Made by a program: the position numbers and the translations under genes. Positions 31,610 through 52,217 of a DNA stretch of 52,616 bases are shown here, piece after piece. Origin of the DNA: a phage; sequence record PZ379594.1; one strand, written 5' to 3'. Under the pieces are notes generated by a model, which was not told where the DNA came from, searched no databases, and saw only the letters and a program-made list of their open reading frames with translations. The stretch's first letter is position 1. Each line of letters begins with the position of its first letter.

Positions 31610-33058
31610 ATGTCAATCCCAATTTCTGACTTAGTTCAGGTTGATATCGCAATCTCCCCGAACGCCATTGCGACTGATGGTTTTGGGCCATTGCTCTTCA
31701 TGAGCAAAGAGTTTGTACCATCTGTTGATATATATCCAGTTCGTTCTTACACCAGTTTGAAAGAAGTTCTGGCAGATTTCCCTGGTGGCGAGATTGCCAA
31801 AGCTGCTACTACTTGGTACTCGCAGAAACCGACTCCGAAGACTTTCCTGGTCGGCGCTATCAAGAATGATACAATGACTCCAGCAACTCCTGCCACTGTT
31901 ACTGCTGCATCTGCTGGTGTACTGTCAACGATTAAGCTGGAAACTGCTGCAACCCTACAGCTGAGTGTTAGTGGTGTTCAGTATGTCACTGACCCGATTA
32001 ACTTCTCCTCTGCTGGAGACTTTGAAGAAGTTGCAACCCTGGTAACTACTGCACTGTCTTCTGTTGGTGCTGGCGTAACTGTTACTCAAGATGCTGGCAA
32101 GTTTAAACTGACTACTTCTGCAACTGGCGCTAACGCAACTATCAGCAACGTTGGTGGTAAAGTTGGGGAAGTGTTGAAGCTGCAATCTTCCGACAATGCA
32201 GTCACGGTTGATGGCAAGAACGAGTTGTCTATTTCCTCCGACCTGGCTGCCATTGCGGATGCTCCATTTAACTTCTTCTATGTAGGTCTTGACCGCAAAT
32301 ATCGTGGCAAGTCTACTCCGGTAGACAACCAAATGTCTGTGGCGAAGTGGTGTGAAGCATCTAGCAAAGTATTTGGCTGGGGCGACAGCGACAAGAATAT
32401 TCTTATCAACGGTACTAACAACAGCTTCCGCCGTGCTAAGAACCAGAATCTGCGTAACACTTTGTGTGTTTACGATGCTTCTACAAATGGTGACGAATAT
32501 CCGGAAATTTCTATTCTGGGTCGTGCATCAACTGTCAACTTTAATGTTGCAAACTCTGTCCTCACTCTGGCATACAAGAAAGGTCCAGGTGTTGCCACTG
32601 CTGACTTATCTTCTGGTCAGTTGAGCGCACTACTTTCTTGTGGTGGTAACGCATTCATCTCCGTTGCTGGCAACGTAATGTTCTACAACGGCCGCATGGC
32701 TGACGGTACGTGGTTCGACTCCGTACAAGGTGTTGAATGGCTTACTCAGAAAGTTCGACTGAATGTGTTCAACTTGTTCTACACCTCCAATACCAAGATT
32801 CCTTGGACGGACACTGGTGTAGCGATGGTTAACCAGCAAGTGACCCTGGCGCTCGAACTCGCCAAGACTAACGGCCTCATTGCCCCTGGCTACGATAACG
32901 AAGGCGTCTTCTACCCAGAAGGCTACAAAGTTATCTCCACTCCGTTAGAACTCTTGCAGTCGCAGAAGGGTGAACGTATTTGGGAAGGTACTTCCTTTAT
33001 TGCTATCGGTTCCGGTGCAATCCAGGGTGCTGTAATCTCTGGCAACTTCATTCAGTAA
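31610..33058 (+). CDS. tail sheath protein (candidate)
   Basis: 482-aa ORF directly upstream of a ~150-aa tube-like ORF, a chaperone pair and the tape measure. Confidence 0.55.
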   Translation: MSIPISDLVQVDIAISPNAIATDGFGPLLFMSKEFVPSVDIYPVRSYTSLKEVLADFPGGEIAKAATTWYSQKPTPKTFLVGAIKNDTMTPATPATVTAASAGVLSTIKLETAATLQLSVSGVQYVTDPINFSSAGDFEEVATLVTTALSSVGAGVTVTQDAGKFKLTTSATGANATISNVGGKVGEVLKLQSSDNAVTVDGKNELSISSDLAAIADAPFNFFYVGLDRKYRGKSTPVDNQMSVAKWCEASSKVFGWGDSDKNILINGTNNSFRRAKNQNLRNTLCVYDASTNGDEYPEISILGRASTVNFNVANSVLTLAYKKGPGVATADLSSGQLSALLSCGGNAFISVAGNVMFYNGRMADGTWFDSVQGVEWLTQKVRLNVFNLFYTSNTKIPWTDTGVAMVNQQVTLALELAKTNGLIAPGYDNEGVFYPEGYKVISTPLELLQSQKGERIWEGTSFIAIGSGAIQGAVISGNFIQ

Positions 33059-33067
33059 GGGTGAACA

Positions 33068-33523
33068 GTGAAGCAATATTCGTTTTATAATACAGACCTC
33101 CTGATTGACGGTGCTCGTGTAGACGGTTTTCAGGCAGGGCAATCTGTAATTACGGCACGCTACAACGTGCCACAACATGTTCCTGTAATGGATGCTTACG
33201 GCAAACTTGCTGTAGCAACCACTGCTGACCAGTCTGGGGTTATTACTTTCCCTCTGCTGCAAACGGCAGACTGGAATGAAATTCTGTATCAACGTGCACA
33301 GCTTACTCGTGCAACTGGCCTGTCTGGTAACAAATCCCTGTGGGAACCTTTGCAGATTCAGTTGGTGGATAAGATGGGCGACGTTCTGGTTAACGGTGTT
33401 AACGGTGCAATCCTGCAACAGCCTGCTATTGTTCGTGGTGTAACCTTTACATCCAACATGTGGGCTATCTTTGTAGAGCGCCTTACCATCGTAACTGGCC
33501 AGTATCCAGAAATCGGCGTATAA
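33068..33523 (+). CDS. tail tube protein (candidate)
   Basis: GTG start with AAGGG RBS; size and position between sheath and chaperone. Confidence 0.5.
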   Translation: MKQYSFYNTDLLIDGARVDGFQAGQSVITARYNVPQHVPVMDAYGKLAVATTADQSGVITFPLLQTADWNEILYQRAQLTRATGLSGNKSLWEPLQIQLVDKMGDVLVNGVNGAILQQPAIVRGVTFTSNMWAIFVERLTIVTGQYPEIGV

Positions 33524-33538
33524 CATTAAGGTAAGAGC

Positions 33539-33997
33539 ATGGCTTGTGAACTTCGTCAACGCGAGTTACAAGCCGACTCTGGTGATGTAGTCTTGGTTGG
33601 TACTCGTCAATTGAGTGCCAGCCAAGCTCTTGACCTACAAGTCGAGCTTGTTCAGAAACTTGGAACTTCAATCTTCCCATTCGTTGAGAATAAATATAAC
33701 TTTGCAGACATTATTTATTTAATGCAGCAAGGTGGGACGAGTAACGGAGTAACAGAATTAATTAAACGTGTAGTGTGCATGGCAACCATTGATGGTGTCG
33801 AAGTTACTCCACGCACTATGCAAATGAAATACAACGGCAACTTGATGCTTATGCACCATGTGTTTGCATTTGTTTTGGAATCGAACTTCCTTGATTTTTT
33901 CAAGCAAGGGCTCGAACTCAACGAACGCAGACGATTGGAGGCGGTGGAAGCATCCAAGATGGCCGAGCAGAAGAATTCGAGTCCGGAAACGATTTAA
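33539..33997 (+). CDS. tail assembly chaperone, in-frame short form
   Basis: 152-aa ORF immediately upstream of the tape measure; contains the slippery site. Confidence 0.6.
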   Translation: MACELRQRELQADSGDVVLVGTRQLSASQALDLQVELVQKLGTSIFPFVENKYNFADIIYLMQQGGTSNGVTELIKRVVCMATIDGVEVTPRTMQMKYNGNLMLMHHVFAFVLESNFLDFFKQGLELNERRRLEAVEASKMAEQKNSSPETI

Positions 33998-34170
33998 CTG
34001 CAAAGTTCCCGGAAATAAAATACTTCTTGCACCGTCCTGTAATAGAGGACAGTTCACTCTGTTCTCTTAAAGAGTTACAAGATGGGACCTACTCTATTAT
34101 GGATTTGTTGACCTTCCACGCAATACTCGATTTGCGTAACGAATTAAAACCTAAAGAAGAAGACAATGGC
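33539..34170 (+). CDS. tail assembly chaperone, predicted -1 frameshift long form (G-T-like, ~210 aa)
   Basis: Canonical G/GT (P2 E/E') arrangement: the -1 frame opens at the slippery heptamer and ends at the tape-measure start. Confidence 0.55.
33895..33901 (+). other. candidate -1 programmed frameshift site T_TTT_TTC
   Basis: Heptamer in the chaperone zero frame (GAT TTT TTC); the -1 frame has a stop at 33892-33894 and is then open for 92 codons to 34170, 4 nt past the tape-measure ATG. Confidence 0.6.
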
Positions 34171-37100
34171 TAATAACATAAAAGATTTGATGAGAATGTC
34201 CGAAGCCGAATTGATTGGCTTAGGCGCTCAATATGGTCTGTCGTTCAATCCAGGTATGCGCAAACGAGATATGGCACAGCAACTTGAATCAAGTGCTGCA
34301 TCTGGTTGGATGGAAACAAATTCGCAGCTTATGGAAGAAACTCATACAGAAGATGATGGCATCTCTTATGGCACTTCCGACATGATTTCAGACTCAGCCC
34401 ACATTGCACAGATGATTTCTGGCGCTGGGCTGACTGAAACATTCCATGCTGCAATGAACGGTCCAAGTCACCATGTAGAAGCTATTCATGCCTACATGGA
34501 GAAATTAGGTGTATCCGCCGATGATGTGTGGATGCACATGCCCAAAGCAAACCCGAACAAACCGGAAGGTCATTGGGGAATGCTTAATGCGTACATGCGT
34601 GATACGCTGACAGGCCATCAAGATATAATGCCAGAGCTTCCTGGACATTATTCAGGCGACATTATGGGCGAGTATTCCACAAACCGTGGAGATATTGCCA
34701 AGTCGTTCGGCTATCTTGCCCACATGTATGTTGACCGTGAACAGTACGACAACCCAGACCGCTATGCACGAGATGTTTATCGTGTAGCCAAACGTTTAGA
34801 ATCAGAATTGCCGCAAAACTTCCGAGAAGTTGCTGCGGTATCTGCAATGAATGTAGGAAATAAGTCGGGGCCAAAACTTTCATACATGGATTCATTGCCT
34901 AAACTTGGCTCTGAGTCAATTGTTAGTGGTATCCAACACCCTAGACAGCCACTTAACGCATCTGGTTTACCACTTGGCTCATTTGGCAGCGGTATTAATG
35001 CCGAATACTCATTATCTGCATCCTTATCTGGCTCGCCAGGCTGGTCTGATGTAAGTAGGACTCTGTACCAAGATGTTTCTAGCGTAGTTAAGTCTGCGGC
35101 AAAGGTCTATTCTGGTGATTCTGAAAGAGGAATGAACGCGTACCGCACTCAATCTTCTGACAGAGATTTGATTCTTGATTCTGCTTCCCGGTATACAGAC
35201 CTTGCTGATGCTCGTTCTGGTTATGACAACTTGAAGAAAGATATTGGCGATGACCCACGTTATTCTGGTGCATCAATTCGCGGTGTACTTGAAAATGCTC
35301 ACCAATATAATGAGGCCGAAGTTACCAAAACATTCGACCCTGCTGAACGTTTAAGAAATACTGGACCTACTGAACTTGGTACATCCAGTGAGTTTACGGC
35401 AAATCTGAATGAACCGACAAGTTGGAACTCTGCAAGGGATAGAAGAGAAGCTATTGCTATTGCAAATCTCGATAGTGCTGGTGCTGGACAGCCTAGTTCG
35501 GTTAAATACCACAATGCGCTCGAACAAGGTACGCAGGAGTGGCTTGATTTTCGTAAGCAGTACGATATTACTGGCTCTACTATTGGTGATTATCTGGGCC
35601 ACAACCCCGCAACCAATAATAGCCCAATACATACAATGGGCGAGAAGATTGGCCTCACAGTAAGAAAGGATTCTCCACGAGCACGTGAGAACTTTGAGCG
35701 TGGTCATAGGCTGGAAGCATGGGCCAGGCCAAGAGTTGGTGAGAAGTACGGGGTTGAGATAACCGAAACTGGCGCAATCACTAACGATAATTACCCTGGT
35801 ATGATGTACTCGCCAGATGGATTAATTGGTGATGACGCTCTGTGGGAACATAAGGCTCCAAACAACTTTAAAGATTTGGAATCAACTCCTAACTACATGG
35901 ACCAGATGCAACTTGGTATGCTTCTGAGTGGTCGTAGTCGCACCCTGTTTACTCAAACTGTTGGCGAAGAATCTCGTAGCCAGTGGGTTGATGCTGACCC
36001 AACGTGGTTCGAACGTAACAAGAATAAGATTGCATCTTCACAAGCACGCATGAAAGCTGGTCGTGAGTTTATGGAAAGCTCTGACCTTGAGGGCAAAGAC
36101 CTTATTAATGCAACTCGTGAAGTTATGTCTGGTGGTGGCATCTGGGGATACCAGACTCGTGACCACAGGGAAGGTGAAGGATACACGGCTGGTAAGCGTG
36201 GAATGGCAAGGTACAGTGCTGCTGCTGGCACTGATGATGACCCGTTCTTAAGAAACCGCACCGATGCTGGAATTGGTGCTTCTACAGCATCTGCTGTTGG
36301 TGCTGATAGCACAACTGGCAATGACCTGATGGCAGTATCTGTCAAGAAAGGTATTCTCGCTGCACAGGAAGAAAACAAGCTGCGTGGACAAGATGCCGAC
36401 TTTGGTGGAAATGATGGTCGTGGTGGCGGAGGTGGCTTCTGGGATACATTTGATGCCAGCAGTTATGGTATCAGCGGAGGTGGTTCTGGTGGCGGCGGTC
36501 GTGGTGGTTGGAGAGTTGGCGGTAGCTTCTCAGATGACTTCGGTCGTGCTGGTGGAGCATTGGCTGCTGGCGTAGCTGGTGGCAGCATTGGTTCATTATC
36601 CAATGGCGCAATGAATGCCCTCATGATGACTCCTTGGGGTCGTGTAGCTGGCATGGCTATTGGTGCTGCCCAGATTGGAAACGAAGCTCTGGAAGGTCTG
36701 AACGACTTCTACGGCAATTCTTTAGATGCTGGTGTTAATAATCCTAACGAATATTCTTCCATGACTCAGGGCATGGAAATGTTGGGACTTAACTCACAAC
36801 AAGCCAATCGACTCAATCAAACCACACATAGTGCCTATAACACCCTCCTAAATGGCGACCCCAGCGGCGCTGTGAACATCGTTCAGGGAACCCGTGGTCT
36901 TATCACAATTGGCGACATTCGTGCGGCACAGGGCGACCCTGTGGCCCTAGCGCGGATAATGCGTGAGCGTGGTCAGGAACGGGGTTGGAGCCAGGCCCGT
37001 ATTGCTGGTGCAATGCAAATGGCTGGTCTGGACGGTATGGCTCGTGCCTATGACCGCACAGAATACAGCATGAGCGAGGCTGAGGCGAACGTTAAGCGCG

Positions 37101-37855
37101 GAGCCGACTCAAACTATGCCGAAGGCGTTGCACAGCTAGGAATCGCGCAGACGGAGCGTGCTGGCGTACTGCCTGGATACGCTGTTCCGCAAGCTGCAAT
37201 TTCATACGGCAGCACCTTTATTGAGGCAGGCGGCGATGCCGCTAGAACGATGCGTGTGGCCTCCAACGGTACAGCCGATGCAGCACGTAATGTTTATGAC
37301 TTTATCGCAGGAGAAGAGTCAGGGAACCGCGATTTTAACGCAGATGGTTCGGTAGTTACATCGCCAACTGGTGCTAAAGGTCGTATGCAAGTTCTTGATT
37401 CAACTTCTCGTGACCCTGGCTTTGGTGTTCGTCCTGCCAAAGATAACTCACTTGAAGAACGTGCCCGTGTTGGTCGTGACTATTACGATGCAATGCTTAA
37501 GCGATATAATGGTGACGCTGAGAAGGCTATGGCGGCGTACACAGATGGTGCCGGAACTGTTGATGATGCTATCAACAAACATGGGACCGACTGGCTGAAC
37601 GCTGTTCCACTACAGGCACAGAACCGTGTCAAGAAGTACCGCGAATGGGCTTCTCAGGGAGATTCTATTGCAGAAGGTGCAACTGGATTCACCAGAAACG
37701 GACTGTCCTATGGTCAGACACAGCCCACCATAGTTAACGTTGAAGTCAAAGCTACCGTGAACAACAAACAAGCGTCTGCAACCGTGTCAACTCCGAACGG
37801 TCAAACTGTTACCCAAACAATCAACATGGGTAATGGTGCAATGGAACGCAGATAA
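34166..37855 (+). CDS. tail tape measure protein with C-terminal lytic transglycosylase-like domain
   Basis: 1229-aa ORF after the chaperone; Gly-rich segments; SLT-like block EESGNRDFNADGSVVTSPTGAKGRMQV...AYTDGAG. Confidence 0.75.
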   Translation: MANNIKDLMRMSEAELIGLGAQYGLSFNPGMRKRDMAQQLESSAASGWMETNSQLMEETHTEDDGISYGTSDMISDSAHIAQMISGAGLTETFHAAMNGPSHHVEAIHAYMEKLGVSADDVWMHMPKANPNKPEGHWGMLNAYMRDTLTGHQDIMPELPGHYSGDIMGEYSTNRGDIAKSFGYLAHMYVDREQYDNPDRYARDVYRVAKRLESELPQNFREVAAVSAMNVGNKSGPKLSYMDSLPKLGSESIVSGIQHPRQPLNASGLPLGSFGSGINAEYSLSASLSGSPGWSDVSRTLYQDVSSVVKSAAKVYSGDSERGMNAYRTQSSDRDLILDSASRYTDLADARSGYDNLKKDIGDDPRYSGASIRGVLENAHQYNEAEVTKTFDPAERLRNTGPTELGTSSEFTANLNEPTSWNSARDRREAIAIANLDSAGAGQPSSVKYHNALEQGTQEWLDFRKQYDITGSTIGDYLGHNPATNNSPIHTMGEKIGLTVRKDSPRARENFERGHRLEAWARPRVGEKYGVEITETGAITNDNYPGMMYSPDGLIGDDALWEHKAPNNFKDLESTPNYMDQMQLGMLLSGRSRTLFTQTVGEESRSQWVDADPTWFERNKNKIASSQARMKAGREFMESSDLEGKDLINATREVMSGGGIWGYQTRDHREGEGYTAGKRGMARYSAAAGTDDDPFLRNRTDAGIGASTASAVGADSTTGNDLMAVSVKKGILAAQEENKLRGQDADFGGNDGRGGGGGFWDTFDASSYGISGGGSGGGGRGGWRVGGSFSDDFGRAGGALAAGVAGGSIGSLSNGAMNALMMTPWGRVAGMAIGAAQIGNEALEGLNDFYGNSLDAGVNNPNEYSSMTQGMEMLGLNSQQANRLNQTTHSAYNTLLNGDPSGAVNIVQGTRGLITIGDIRAAQGDPVALARIMRERGQERGWSQARIAGAMQMAGLDGMARAYDRTEYSMSEAEANVKRGADSNYAEGVAQLGIAQTERAGVLPGYAVPQAAISYGSTFIEAGGDAARTMRVASNGTADAARNVYDFIAGEESGNRDFNADGSVVTSPTGAKGRMQVLDSTSRDPGFGVRPAKDNSLEERARVGRDYYDAMLKRYNGDAEKAMAAYTDGAGTVDDAINKHGTDWLNAVPLQAQNRVKKYREWASQGDSIAEGATGFTRNGLSYGQTQPTIVNVEVKATVNNKQASATVSTPNGQTVTQTINMGNGAMERR

Positions 37856-45800: not shown

Positions 45801-47153
45801 ATGGCTAAAGGTTGGTCATTTGGCGGCTTAATTGCCGCCTTAAAGTCTGCTGCATTCTTAAATGCAGGTACTGCTCGTGGTGAAGTAATCACTGTTGGAC
45901 AAAAAAATGCCCAGATTCCAACCACAGCATTTGTAACAAACTTTAATTTCAATACATACACATTCACCAATGGTGAGGTTCTATATGTTGAGATGAACTC
46001 TGCTGTAAACGTTCCACCAGAGTTACAGAAGTGGGACCTTGGGAAGTTCAGTGGGGCATATGTAATTATAACTGTGCTTGGAATTTCTGATAACAGCAAT
46101 GCCTCCATCCTCGTAACACATGGTGAGGCAGCACGACCTCCAATCATGTACTACTCTCGCGGACCGTCTGGCAGCAGGTCGTACACAGCGCAACCCCTAA
46201 TGTCTTGCAAGGATGCCGGAAGCGCGAACATTAACCTGTTTACAGGTGCGTCAGATGTTGGTGTTTATTATCAAGAGTCTGATGTTGTTGCTGGCTCTGC
46301 TGGTGGCTATCCAGCAGCACATGCTGGCACACTGGAGGTTTTGCCAACTGCATATGGTGTACAGCAACGCTATACATCCATATATGGTAACGTTTGGGTT
46401 CGTAGTCGTACACTTGATTCCTCGCAGAATTGGGCCGATTGGAGAGAGCTTGCACGAGTAAACCAGCGCGACCGTATTACAGAAGTTGGTGCAATAGAGT
46501 TGTATAACGATATTCCATACATCGACTTCCACTATGCAAACTCTGGTTTAGACTACACTGCACGTATTATTGCAGAAGGATACAATCAGTTAGCTTTACG
46601 TGGAACTGGCACAGACTTCAAGCTGTTCCTGAATGGGCAGTATCGCGGCGTAACTTGGGGCCGTGGTTGGGGTCAAGAAACAGATGGGCACGTCCCTTAT
46701 GGAGTGTATAACTGCGAAGTTGGTCCAGATGCCTGGGTCCCAATCTTGACACTCCAAACTGTAACATCTGGTCAAGGGTATGGAACTCATATTTCGTTTG
46801 GTGCGTACAGCAGAAATAATGATTTCTCAAATCCTGTAATCTCACGACGTGGTGATAATGGTGCTGTACACAACTGGACATTCCAGAATGACGGCAACAT
46901 TGACTACACTGGCAATGGTGGTCCATTCCGTTTTGCACGGGAGAATTGGGTAAACTCTTCTTTCATGAGCGATATTCGCCTGGCCTCCTACCAAGAGACT
47001 ACCACATGGCGTGGCTACGGGTATCGGGATGAATCTGGTTGGGTAATCACTGCTGTAATCAACCAAACTGCTGACGAATTCATCGACTATGTTGGTCGTC
47101 GTAAACTCCAGAAATATATGAATGGAACATGGTATGACAGCTACTCTGTGTAA
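45801..47153 (+). CDS. tail fibre / receptor-binding protein 3
   Basis: Long G/Y/N/T-rich ORF followed by a tail-fibre-assembly-like gene. Confidence 0.5.
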   Translation: MAKGWSFGGLIAALKSAAFLNAGTARGEVITVGQKNAQIPTTAFVTNFNFNTYTFTNGEVLYVEMNSAVNVPPELQKWDLGKFSGAYVIITVLGISDNSNASILVTHGEAARPPIMYYSRGPSGSRSYTAQPLMSCKDAGSANINLFTGASDVGVYYQESDVVAGSAGGYPAAHAGTLEVLPTAYGVQQRYTSIYGNVWVRSRTLDSSQNWADWRELARVNQRDRITEVGAIELYNDIPYIDFHYANSGLDYTARIIAEGYNQLALRGTGTDFKLFLNGQYRGVTWGRGWGQETDGHVPYGVYNCEVGPDAWVPILTLQTVTSGQGYGTHISFGAYSRNNDFSNPVISRRGDNGAVHNWTFQNDGNIDYTGNGGPFRFARENWVNSSFMSDIRLASYQETTTWRGYGYRDESGWVITAVINQTADEFIDYVGRRKLQKYMNGTWYDSYSV

Positions 47154-48577: not shown

Positions 48578-49677
48578 TGGCTTACACTACCTTTTCACAA
48601 ACCAAGAATAACCAACTACTAGAACCAATGTTCTTTGGTCAGAACGTTAACGTTGCTCGATATGACCAACAGAAGTACAGCATCTTCGAGAAGTTAATTG
48701 AGAAGCAGTTATCTTTCTTTTGGCGACCTGAGGAGGTTGATGTTAGCCAGGACCGAATTGATTATGCTGGTCTTCCTGAATGCGAGAAGCACATTTTTAC
48801 CAGCAATTTACGGTACCAAATCCTGCTTGATTCCATTCAGGGACGTGGACCAACTGCAGTTTTGCTACCAATTGTGAGCATTCCTGAGCTTGAAACTTGG
48901 ATTGAAACTTGGTCATTCTCAGAGACAATTCACTCTCGTTCTTACACGCATATTATCCGTAACATTGTTACAAACCCAAGCGTAATTTTCGATGAAATTG
49001 TGGAGAATGAGCACATTAAAATGCGTGCAATTGGCATCTCCCAATATTATGACGAGCTTCAACATCTGACTTCCATGTGGCATTTGCATGAAGATAAAGT
49101 TTCTCTTCGTGAGCTTAAGAAGAAGCTGTATTTATGCCTCATGTCCATCAATGCACTGGAAGCAATTCGCTTTTATGTCAGCTTTGCTTGCTCATTTGCC
49201 TTCGCTGAACGCAAGTTAATGGAGGGAAATGCCAAGATTATTCGCTTAATTGCTCGTGATGAAGCACTCCATTTGACCGGAACTCAACACATGCTGAACC
49301 TTCTTGCAAGCGGTGTTGATGACCCAGAAATGGCCGAAATTGCTAAAGAATGTCGTCAAGAATGCCAAGAAATGTTCGAAAATGTGGCCCAACAAGAGAA
49401 AGATTGGGCTGATTATTTGTTCAAAGATGGCTCAATGATTGGCTTAAACAAGCAAATTCTGTGCGGATATGTGGAATATATCACGAATATTCGTATGCAA
49501 GCAGTTGGATTAGATGCTCCATTCAAAGGTGCTACTAACCCGATTCCTTGGATTAACGCATGGTTGAATTCGGATGCTGTACAAGTTGCTCCACAAGAAA
49601 CGGAGATTAGTTCGTACCTTGTTGGGCAGATTGACTCCGAAGTTGACACCAATGCTCTAGGCGGATTTGAACTATGA
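48577..49677 (+). CDS. nrdB: ribonucleotide reductase class Ia small subunit
   Basis: Long blocks (LLDSIQGR...[32 protein letters not shown]; [18 protein letters not shown]; C-terminal [14 protein letters not shown]) match my recollection of enterobacterial NrdB; no nrdA in the window. Confidence 0.8.
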
Positions 49678-49784: not shown

Positions 49785-50020
49785 ATTTATTCCCAATATT
49801 GCTACAATATTAAGAGTAATATTAGGAATGCGTAAAGTTAAAACCAAATGGTACATGGTCGGTCAGCTGTATCTCGCCGAAATTTGTTCGAACAGTTGTC
49901 TGACTATGAAATAAATTTTTTTTTTTATAATTTTTTATTTTCAATATTGCTACAGAATTAATGAGACTCGAATTGTTACGATATTAACGAGACTAGAATT
50001 GTGGCAATATTATAATTTTT
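49785..50020. repeat. second array of CAATATTGCTACA-type motifs plus an AT-rich tract, upstream of the RNA polymerase gene
   Basis: CCCAATATTGCTACAATATTAAGAGTAATATTAGG, TTTTCAATATTGCTACAGAATTAATGAGACTCGAATTGTTACGATATTAACGAGACTAGAATTGTGGCAATATTATAAT and a T/A run at 49911-49945; same family as the 100-790 array. Confidence 0.55.
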
Positions 50021-50276: not shown

Positions 50277-52217
50277 ATGACTACTATCACCACTCAAACT
50301 ATCAAATCTGTTGTTCCTGCCATCACTGCTCTGGTATACCGTGCCAAAGAGAAGCAGAACTATATGCAGCCTCAGACTTGTGCTATTGCTGCCTTAGCCA
50401 TATTCAAGATGATGACGTCTTTCACTCGTGATGACGTTGTTCCTGCCATTGCGATGGTTGAGCTGGCTTCTGCTTCTATTGCTGATGCCAACCGCTACAA
50501 CAACGACTTGAAAGCAATGCACTATGTTGACCCAGCTATCAACCTCATTGGTCTGGCTAAGCACTTCGGCTTCATCACCATGAACGAAGACAAGTCATTC
50601 CAGCAAACTGACACATGGGTTGAACTGGTTACAACCAAAGACACAGCAGTGCCATTCACTGAGCGTGTTACATCTGAATCTCGTCGCAAGCCTTTCGTTA
50701 AAGGTGGCAAAGTTAAGCCATCCAAAACTCTGAAAGCTGCAATCGAATTCCTGCAAGATACTGAGTACCATGTGGAGACTGAGATGGTTCGCATCATTCA
50801 GTCCATGCTTGAGCAACGTACTTATGGTGGCTTGCAGATGCCAGAAGCAATCCAGACTGAACTCCATGTTTGGAACAATGCTGTAGCAATGATGAATCAG
50901 GACACACTGTATTCTGACTACTTTGCTGACAACCGTGGTCGCCTGTATCATGTAGCATGTGCTGGTCCTAACCCACAATCCTCTGACTTTGCTCGTTGCT
51001 TGTATTCTCACAATGTTGAGAACATCGTTAAGAAGTTTAACGAAGATGGTTCTACTACCATTGCATACAACATGTTCATGGCAGAGCTGGAAGATATTTC
51101 CGGTGGTGAATGGTGCAGTGCTAAGCGTTTGACCTATGTTGCTCAGAATCCGGCTGGTTCACTTGCTCGCATGATGAACATGCCTAAAGCTGAACGTCCC
51201 TCTAAGCCATTCACTTATGTTCGTCTGGCTCTGGATTGGTTCAAGTTTGAGACTACAGGTGAATGCGATTCCCGTGTAGGATTTGGCTTAGATGCTAAAT
51301 GCTCTGGTACTCAATATCTGGCATTCATTGCTGGTAACATGGAAATGGCTCGTGCAACAGGTCTGGTTGATTCTGAGACTAAAGCATCTGACCCATACCA
51401 GTTGAGTCTTCGTGAACTGTTGAAGCTGCTGGACAAGTCTTCAATGAAACCATCTCCTGAAATCATGGATGAATTCTTGAATCCGAAAGCTGGTCGTAAG
51501 TTTATCAAAACTCCATACATGGCTATCCAATATGGTGGTGGTAAAGCTGCTTTAACTGGTTCATCTGACTTCATTGGCTACATGACAGAAGCTCTCCAGA
51601 TTCCTATGGAGAAAGCTGAGGCATTTGCTGAACTGTGTGTAGAAGCAATCCATAACGCATTGGGTGCTAAGATTAACATGTTCATTGAGAAAGCTGCTGA
51701 TGCTGCATACAACCGTTGTGTTGAACTTGGTAAAGAGTACATCACATACCGTCACACTGATGGTCAGGTTGTAATGAAGCCTTGCTTCCCATCTCGTGAA
51801 ATCTGTGATGCATTCAGCATTCGTGTTGACTCTCAAACTCGTGTTATCTTTGGTCAGATTCAGGAAGAGAAACCTTGGACCATTCGTGAATCCAATCCAA
51901 CTAAAGAGGAATTCAAGCGTACTTTCGTAGTCAACTATATTCAAGGTATTGACGCATTGGTTGCTCGTACTGTTGCTGTTAAAGCTAAAGAAGCTGGTCT
52001 TCGTGGTTTCACTTCAATCCATGATTGTTTCCGTTGCTGTCTGGCTGATGCTCCACGTATGATGGAAGTTATTCGTGCAGCATATGTTGAAATCTTCGTA
52101 ACCAACAATCAATTCGAGAATCTGTCTAAGCAACTCGGTGGCATTCAGATGTATCATGAGAACATCGTAACCGAAGAGCTTCTGATGAGCGAACACGCTT
52201 ACTACTTCTGTCAATAA
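50277..52217 (+). CDS. single-subunit (T7-like) DNA-dependent RNA polymerase, short form (646 aa)
   Basis: Catalytic motifs DAKCSGTQYLAF (T7 DGSCSGIQHFSAM), KTPYMAIQYGGG (motif B-like) and TSIHDCFRCCLADA (T7 LIHDSFGTIPADA). Confidence 0.8.
   Translation: MTTITTQTIKSVVPAITALVYRAKEKQNYMQPQTCAIAALAIFKMMTSFTRDDVVPAIAMVELASASIADANRYNNDLKAMHYVDPAINLIGLAKHFGFITMNEDKSFQQTDTWVELVTTKDTAVPFTERVTSESRRKPFVKGGKVKPSKTLKAAIEFLQDTEYHVETEMVRIIQSMLEQRTYGGLQMPEAIQTELHVWNNAVAMMNQDTLYSDYFADNRGRLYHVACAGPNPQSSDFARCLYSHNVENIVKKFNEDGSTTIAYNMFMAELEDISGGEWCSAKRLTYVAQNPAGSLARMMNMPKAERPSKPFTYVRLALDWFKFETTGECDSRVGFGLDAKCSGTQYLAFIAGNMEMARATGLVDSETKASDPYQLSLRELLKLLDKSSMKPSPEIMDEFLNPKAGRKFIKTPYMAIQYGGGKAALTGSSDFIGYMTEALQIPMEKAEAFAELCVEAIHNALGAKINMFIEKAADAAYNRCVELGKEYITYRHTDGQVVMKPCFPSREICDAFSIRVDSQTRVIFGQIQEEKPWTIRESNPTKEEFKRTFVVNYIQGIDALVARTVAVKAKEAGLRGFTSIHDCFRCCLADAPRMMEVIRAAYVEIFVTNNQFENLSKQLGGIQMYHENIVTEELLMSEHAYYFCQ

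Follow-up and report, generated by a model that had tools for sequence, protein, structure and literature searches.

The tail assembly chaperone gene of the Chaseviridae myovirus examined here very probably undergoes programmed −1 ribosomal frameshifting of the type known from lambda (G/GT) and P2 (E/E+E′), which would give a 211-aa fusion protein, GT, besides the 152-aa product of the unshifted frame, G. The signal for such a slip, a T_TTT_TTC heptamer, is present in the window (the whole 52,616-bp stretch of DNA that was analysed); it lies in phase with the chaperone gene and is conserved among relatives, and the −1 frame beyond it bears the mark of selection. All of the sequence-level predictions of a G/GT-type frameshift that could be tested here agreed with what we found, and support this reading. 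Frameshifting in tail chaperones is, to our knowledge, already recognized as near-universal in long-tailed phages. The type of frameshift is thus a textbook one; in the Chaseviridae, it is unannotated in the 13 records that we checked and we found no description of it in the literature, with the proviso that the original phiEcoM-GJ1 paper (PMC2223254) may mention it.

Gene order and reading frames at the slip site

The source of the window is an E. coli phage, and the region is 99.5% identical to Escherichia phages PO103-1 and Ecp_YSF; phiEcoM-GJ1 is ~74% identical to the window over the chaperone region. For reference we took the G/GT class of programmed −1 frameshifts in the chaperones of long-tailed phages (Xu, Hendrix & Duda 2004), in which the gene pair lies between the tube gene and the tape-measure gene, and this is the position that the pair occupies in the window. 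The genes are arranged on the + strand in the order sheath, tube, chaperone G/T and a long ORF in the tape-measure position, an order also present in relatives and in a copy from Hafnia. The tail sheath gene (31610..33058, + strand, 482 aa) was assigned from its match to Pfam DUF3383/E217_gp31_N (1.7e-56) and from the annotation of relatives as tail sheath. The tail tube gene (33068..33523, + strand, 151 aa), which adjoins the 5′ side of the chaperone gene, matched PHROG 280 (1.9e-30) and, weakly, Pfam KPP10_Orf10, and is labelled tail tube or virion structural protein in the records of relatives. The start of this tube gene differs between records: it is called as 112 aa in PO103-1 and vB_Shi_2KOFFS (loci L001 and L003, 1689-2024) versus 152 aa in phiEcoM-GJ1, whose start is the equivalent of GTG 33068 in the window. 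The chaperone gene is wholly unannotated in the PO103-1 record.

The chaperone ORF, G, extends in the 0 frame from ATG 33539 to the TAA stop at 33995-33997 (33539..33997, + strand, 152 aa). It matched Pfam Phage_TAC_15 (PF21822) over residues 23-126 with 54.8 bits against a cut-off of 22, a match found in all 11 of the family members scanned, and PHROG 11820 'tail assembly chaperone' at 8e-58. Because codons 119-121 of G are GAT TTT TTC (33893-33901), the T_TTT_TTC heptamer at 33895..33901 (+ strand) has the form X_XXY_YYZ in the 0 frame, with TTT TTC encoding F120 and F121; the in-frame heptamer reported in the first-pass annotation was therefore correct to the base. Read from the sequence, a −1-frame TGA stop at 33892..33894 (+ strand) abuts the slip site on its 5′ side and determines how far 5′ a frameshift could occur. 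The earlier reading that this stop ends exactly at the slip site holds for the window but not as a general feature, the corresponding stop in relatives lying 0-19 codons upstream; by comparison with these relatives, the exact abutment of stop and heptamer is incidental.

Beyond the TGA come 92 open −1 codons (33895-34170), just as had been claimed, and then TAA 34171-34173. G and T share the dual-coding segment 33895..33997 (+ strand), whose 0 frame encodes the C-terminal tail of G and whose −1 frame encodes the start of T. The −1 extension, T, would comprise 90 codons from CAA 33901, followed by the TAA (33901..34173, + strand). The ATG of the 1229-aa ORF (34166-34168) overlaps the end of the T frame by 8 nt (ATGGCTAA). 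That the −1 frame overlaps the ATG of the next gene is thus right, and the 4 nt given in the first-pass annotation for the distance from this ATG to the end of the frame is approximate, since the last sense codon ends 2 nt and the stop 5 nt past the ATG. The predicted GT fusion amounts to 211 aa, of which the 0 frame supplies 121 aa (up to and including F120-F121) and the −1 frame 90 aa, in agreement with the ~210 aa expected beforehand; its predicted junction tryptic peptide is YNGNLMLMHHVFAFVLESNFLDFFQAR, and the corresponding G peptide ends in ...LDFFK. The overlap contained no second X_XXY_YYZ heptamer, and inspection by eye revealed no A_AAG- or U_UUY-type tetramer in the 0 frame elsewhere in it.

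TTTTTTC occurs just once on the two strands of the 52,616 bp, against 18.9 ± 4.5 occurrences expected from dinucleotide-preserving shuffles. T6/A6 runs are likewise depleted about eight-fold, with 10 matches versus 84 ± 11 expected; the genome avoids sequence of the T6/A6 type, yet keeps TTTTTTC at the chaperone site. In-frame X_XXY_YYZ heptamers numbered 45 in ~16,000 codons of non-overlapping ORFs, and three of these open into a −1 stretch that continues for over 50 codons beyond the 0-frame stop, the chaperone site being the sole homopolymeric one. The other two are CCCAAAC (9114) and TTTGGGA (9422), which lie in frame near the 3′ ends of ORFs 8866..9186 and 9147..9473; past them, the −1 frame stays open for 117 and 68 codons, respectively, and the −1 frame of the 9114 heptamer is merely the frame of the next, overlapping gene. 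Elsewhere in the window, T6/A6 runs were seen at 45901-45907, 49916-49926 and 49931-49936 only. The first is an A7 run in ORF 45801..47153 that forms an in-frame A_AAA_AAT, after which the −1 frame closes within 12 codons; the T11 (49916-49926) and T6 (49931-49936) runs belong to an AT-rich stretch between the last long ORF, which ends at 49677, and ORF 50277..52217.

Conservation of the slip site and of the −1 frame

For comparison we assembled 41 loci, made up of 13 annotated phage records, 27 IMG/VR entries and 1 Hafnia alvei chromosome. The annotated records span Carltongylesvirus, Loessnervirus, Suwonvirus, Faunusvirus, Myducvirus, Nefertitivirinae and Shantouvirus, and the phages in the set have Escherichia, Erwinia, Pantoea, Pectobacterium, Proteus, Vibrio, Shewanella and Aeromonas as hosts, the Hafnia copy being chromosomal. 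TTTTTTC was found in the 0 frame, at a DFF motif around codon 114-120 of G, in 39 of the 41 loci. The remaining two are a single phage, Erwinia phage Faunus, which was entered twice and has G_TTT_TTC, with the A-site tetramer U_UUC kept; because G_UUU_UUC retains this tetramer, the exception still fits a frameshift. The heptamer persisted while identity of G to the window fell to ~30%, and was also present in three metagenomic contigs (L038, L039 and L040) that resemble the window in the T domain only, L039 and L040 carrying an identical gene pair. Conservation of the in-phase heptamer thus spans the whole of the Chaseviridae and beyond. The T run was never longer than 6 in the 41 loci and was 5 in Faunus. 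In every locus, the first −1 stop past the heptamer was one that overlaps or adjoins the initiation codon of the long ORF, the junctions observed being ATGGCTAA, TGATG, TAATG and ATGA. Such strict conservation of one heptamer over so wide a span is a modest curiosity.

Two further observations concern hosts. In PP952070.1, entered as 'Staphylococcus phage Pel53' with Staphylococcus hyicus as host, the chaperone is 65% identical to that of the window, and the record was also matched in a megablast of the 1.7-kb region; the Staphylococcus label is odd, as the Chaseviridae were otherwise seen here on Gram-negative hosts only. In Hafnia alvei, chromosomal contigs of 4.8 and 1.6 Mb (L041, GCA_002206365.2, and L042, GCA_016103045.1) hold a Chaseviridae-like module of capsid, sheath, tube, chaperone and long ORF, with the same TTTTTTC frameshift site. 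Chaseviridae are regarded as strictly virulent.

Used in tblastn, the 92-codon −1 translation had matches in 110 phage records, which were 42-100% identical to it across residues ~26-92. Variable sites were counted by codon position in a gap-free alignment of 11 distinct sequences. In the part that codes for G only, 204 of 354 sites varied (61, 48 and 95 at the first, second and third positions of 0-frame codons, 118 sites each); in the part that codes for T only, past the G stop, 78 of 174 sites varied (21, 11 and 46 by −1-frame codon position, 58 sites each). Judged by its excess of third-position variation, the T segment is under purifying selection as protein-coding sequence in its own −1 frame. 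The overlap differed from both flanks: 18 of its 93 sites varied, about three-fold below the flanks and without codon periodicity, and such low, aperiodic variation is expected when both frames code.

The reconstructed GT proteins aligned over their full length, with invariant residues on both sides of the junction, among them F120, F121, R124, P158, C175, G183, H194 and D198. The conserved core of the T domain, FPEIKYFLHRP...DGTYS..DLL.FH.ILDLR (34018..34167, + strand), is supported by PHROG 4364 and by the invariant residues of the alignment; PHROG 4364, a 54-position profile listed as 'unknown function', matched T residues 42-91 at 9.6e-18. Pfam DUF6889 (PF21829) matched the T domain of all 11 reconstructed GT proteins at E≤1, the best at 3.4e-9. 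The window's own T scored 13.8 bits (E = 0.05), below the cut-off of 23.9; given the better matches of the relatives, a family link between T and DUF6889 is likely even though the window copy fails by itself. Phage_TAC_15 and DUF6889 are catalogued as unrelated Pfam entries, and neither DUF6889 nor PHROG 4364 has a function assigned. These matches suggest that DUF6889 and PHROG 4364 represent the frameshift-encoded T domain of a Phage_TAC_15-type chaperone. A search of a 5.8-billion-protein database with the GT query recovered no in-frame G-T fusion; the 26 homologues found, all 132-158 aa long, cover the G part alone, and so revealed no lineage with a natural in-frame fusion.

Proposed mechanism, known systems and alternative readings

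The slip, how efficient it is and what the two proteins do are inferred, as follows. Most ribosomes that start at ATG 33539 would reach TAA 33995 and release the 152-aa G. A minority would slip with tRNA-Phe in both the P and A sites on UUU UUC (33896-33901), the two tRNAs re-pairing one base back on UUU UUU, after which translation in the −1 frame would run from CAA 33901 to TAA 34171. The 211-aa GT so formed would consist of the chaperone domain of G and a 90-residue extension with the conserved T domain at its C terminus. By analogy with lambda, the protein in the tape-measure position, encoded directly downstream, would be coated by the G parts; GT, the less abundant product, would bring in the tube protein through its T domain; and neither chaperone would remain in the virion. 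In E. coli, U_UUU_UUC falls within the high-efficiency class H_HH.U_UU.Y, for which shifting exceeds 0.1% without stimulators; it is under-represented in the genes of that host, and U_UUC is the second most shift-prone tetramer (PMC4066793).

Folding gave little sign of a stimulatory RNA structure. RNAalifold, applied to 13 diverse sequences, returned zero consensus pairs and hence no family-wide stimulatory structure, and single-sequence folds of the 100 nt past the heptamer were mostly no stabler than shuffles (z = −0.2 for the window); on these results a family-wide RNA stimulator was rejected. As lambda and P2 also do without such stimulators, its absence is not strongly negative. The minimum-energy fold of the window does contain a 9-bp helix, which begins 6 nt after the heptamer and pairs GGGCUCGAA (33908..33916, + strand) with UUCGAGUCC (33966..33974, + strand). 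Its duplex energy was −15.5 kcal/mol versus −11.1 ± 2.1 in shuffles (p ~0.04), and a comparison of the post-heptamer segment with the 90 nt downstream gave nominal p values of 0.007-0.04 in the window's own clade only, the members of which are related. We saw no covariation in this helix, both arms of which lie in dual-coded sequence, and it was not conserved in the Loessnervirus, Faunus, Vibrio and Shewanella lineages. We regard it as a weak candidate for a stimulator. On the upstream side, no Shine-Dalgarno-like stimulator was seen by eye in CTTCCTTGA.

Lambda G/GT was reportedly worked out by Levin, Hendrix and Casjens in 1993 and by Xu, Hendrix and Duda in 2004, 2013 and 2014, and P2 E/E+E′ reportedly by Christie et al. 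in 2002. Summaries of the two systems are given in PMC5009743 (lambda) and PMC3091744 (P2). As in lambda, two overlapping ORFs lie between the major tail or tube gene and the tape-measure gene, the −1 slip would occur on an X_XXY_YYZ heptamer near the 3′ end of G, the fusion would join the shared N-terminal chaperone domain to an added T domain, and a strong RNA stimulator is not required. Unlike lambda, the heptamer is T_TTT_TTC here rather than G_GGA_AAG, and the tail is contractile, so that the partner would be a tube protein inside a sheath. The likeness to P2 goes further: P2, itself a myovirus, likewise shifts to the −1 frame in a chaperone gene upstream of the tape-measure gene, its slip site is nearly identical (TTTTTTG) and needs no downstream hairpin (PMC3091744), and the site is conserved, in the case of P2 among relatives with only 49-59% protein identity. 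The systems differ in that the P2 proteins are shorter (91 aa for E and 142 aa for E+E′ versus 152 and 211 aa here) and in that the heptamer ends here in C, placing UUC (Phe) in the A site, in contrast to UUG (Leu) in P2.

Sequence homology to lambda gpG or P2 gpE was not detected, the only Pfam match at E≤0.1 being Phage_TAC_15, and a profile search of PDB sequences with the GT alignment returned noise only (E≥0.08). The match to the lambda and P2 geometry proposed in the first-pass annotation accordingly stands for mechanism and gene order, but it does not extend to detectable sequence homology. The best-supported assignment from these comparisons is that the mechanism would be closer to P2 E/E+E′ than to lambda, because P2 is likewise a myovirus with a near-identical heptamer; by sequence, the protein belongs to Phage_TAC_15.

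The alternative that survives best is transcriptional slippage, in which host or phage T7-like RNA polymerase would add one U on the T6 run. The site is homopolymeric, and insertion of one U would yield the identical 211-aa GT, a product inseparable by sequence alone from that of a ribosomal slip; the roughly eight-fold avoidance of T6/A6 in the genome is also consistent with slippage-prone runs. Efficient slippage, whether by bacterial or T7 polymerase, usually needs runs of ~8-9 or more, whereas the run here stays within 6 in the 41 loci, and Faunus combines T5 with an intact ribosomal tetramer. Homopolymer heptamers have been noted as possible sites of transcriptional slippage (PMC4066793), a point in its favor; on the other hand, the chaperone precedents that have been studied are ribosomal, both in lambda (PMC5009743) and in P2 (PMC3091744). 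We therefore consider transcriptional slippage unlikely.

Less room is left for the view that the −1 segment is a separate small gene with its own start, which we consider very unlikely. Gene callers and RefSeq do list short 'hypothetical proteins' in the −1 frame, a 48-aa one from TTG 34027 in window-type genomes and the 73-aa gp61 in phiEcoM-GJ1, and PHROG 4364 was built from such short-ORF calls. The starts called, however, vary between phages and are located within the conserved domain. The Leu of the conserved YFLHRP motif is encoded by TTG 34027, and the RefSeq start of phiEcoM-GJ1 gp61 is −1 codon 20, an Ile codon that is not ATG, GTG or TTG, the first standard start there being at codon 61. 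Of the 30 distinct T sequences, 28 contain neither ATG, GTG nor TTG in the interval from the slip site to the conserved core, the other two having a TTG one codon ahead of the core, and no Shine-Dalgarno-like sequence for an independent T start was seen in any of the 30. In addition, the −1 reading is conserved from the heptamer onward (FF.AR, with R124 invariant), and nothing was called in the T segment of the records for Loessnervirus, Faunus, Vibrio phage VPs20 and Aeromonas phage ZPAH14. In the 13 feature tables checked, this segment was either empty or called as a truncated 'hypothetical protein', and in none of the 13 was it joined to the chaperone. The first-pass annotation had named an independently initiated ORF in homologous phages as grounds against the frameshift; the homologues did not bear this out, the short ORFs called in some of their records having inconsistent starts inside a conserved domain. 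Chance, or a sequencing error in the T6 homopolymer that splits a single ORF, has a negligible probability and is effectively refuted by the comparative data: the geometry by itself can arise trivially, given that 3 of 45 in-frame heptamers precede long −1 open stretches, but the same run length and phase recur in ~40 independently sequenced genomes and metagenomes, the −1 frame carries a signature of selection, and the rest of the window is strongly depleted of the heptamer.

The downstream gene and the meaning of the probable frameshift

The 1229-aa ORF in the tape-measure position (34166..37855, + strand) contains Pfam YqaJ at aa 458-590 and SLT at aa 1064-1140. It matched PHROG 19855, an unspecific 'virion structural protein' family, and families of YqaJ, SLT, exonuclease, endolysin, lytic tail fiber and transglycosylase; scans of Pfam and PHROGs gave no match to a named tape-measure family. 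One relative record (PYps23T) labels its homologue tape measure protein. The proposal that the frameshift supports a tape-measure role for this ORF thus holds through position, but not through a match to any named tape-measure family. The YqaJ/lambda-exonuclease-like domain embedded in the protein (Pfam, 9.8e-11; PHROG RecE-like, 1.3e-19) has nuclease motifs SPDG, WEHK and YMDQMQ that look intact by eye, and the SLT transglycosylase domain is at the C terminus. The YqaJ and SLT pair recurs in the Hafnia copy (L041, 4629-8195), and the Aeromonas phage ZPAH14 record gives its homologue as 'exonuclease', together with a yqaJ feature. It is unusual for a protein in the tape-measure position to contain a nuclease.

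One could picture the invariant T_TTT_TTC, the ~100-nt dual-coded segment with its lineage-specific candidate helix and the overlap of the GT stop with the downstream start as a single integrated module, a reading that we think unlikely. If it were true, translation of the YqaJ-bearing protein in the tape-measure position would be coupled to the ribosomes that have frameshifted, and the rate of frameshifting would set the ratio of tape measure to GT.

Recognition of this very probable −1 frameshift corrects a family-wide gap in annotation, ~110 phage records holding the T segment, and adds one more case to a known class, unusual in the strictness with which a single heptamer is conserved. It also provides a likely function for DUF6889 and PHROG 4364, as the frameshift-encoded T domain of the tail assembly chaperone. 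Chaseviridae are candidates for phage therapy and biocontrol, and any engineering or refactoring of their tail genes must preserve both the heptamer and the dual-coded overlap.
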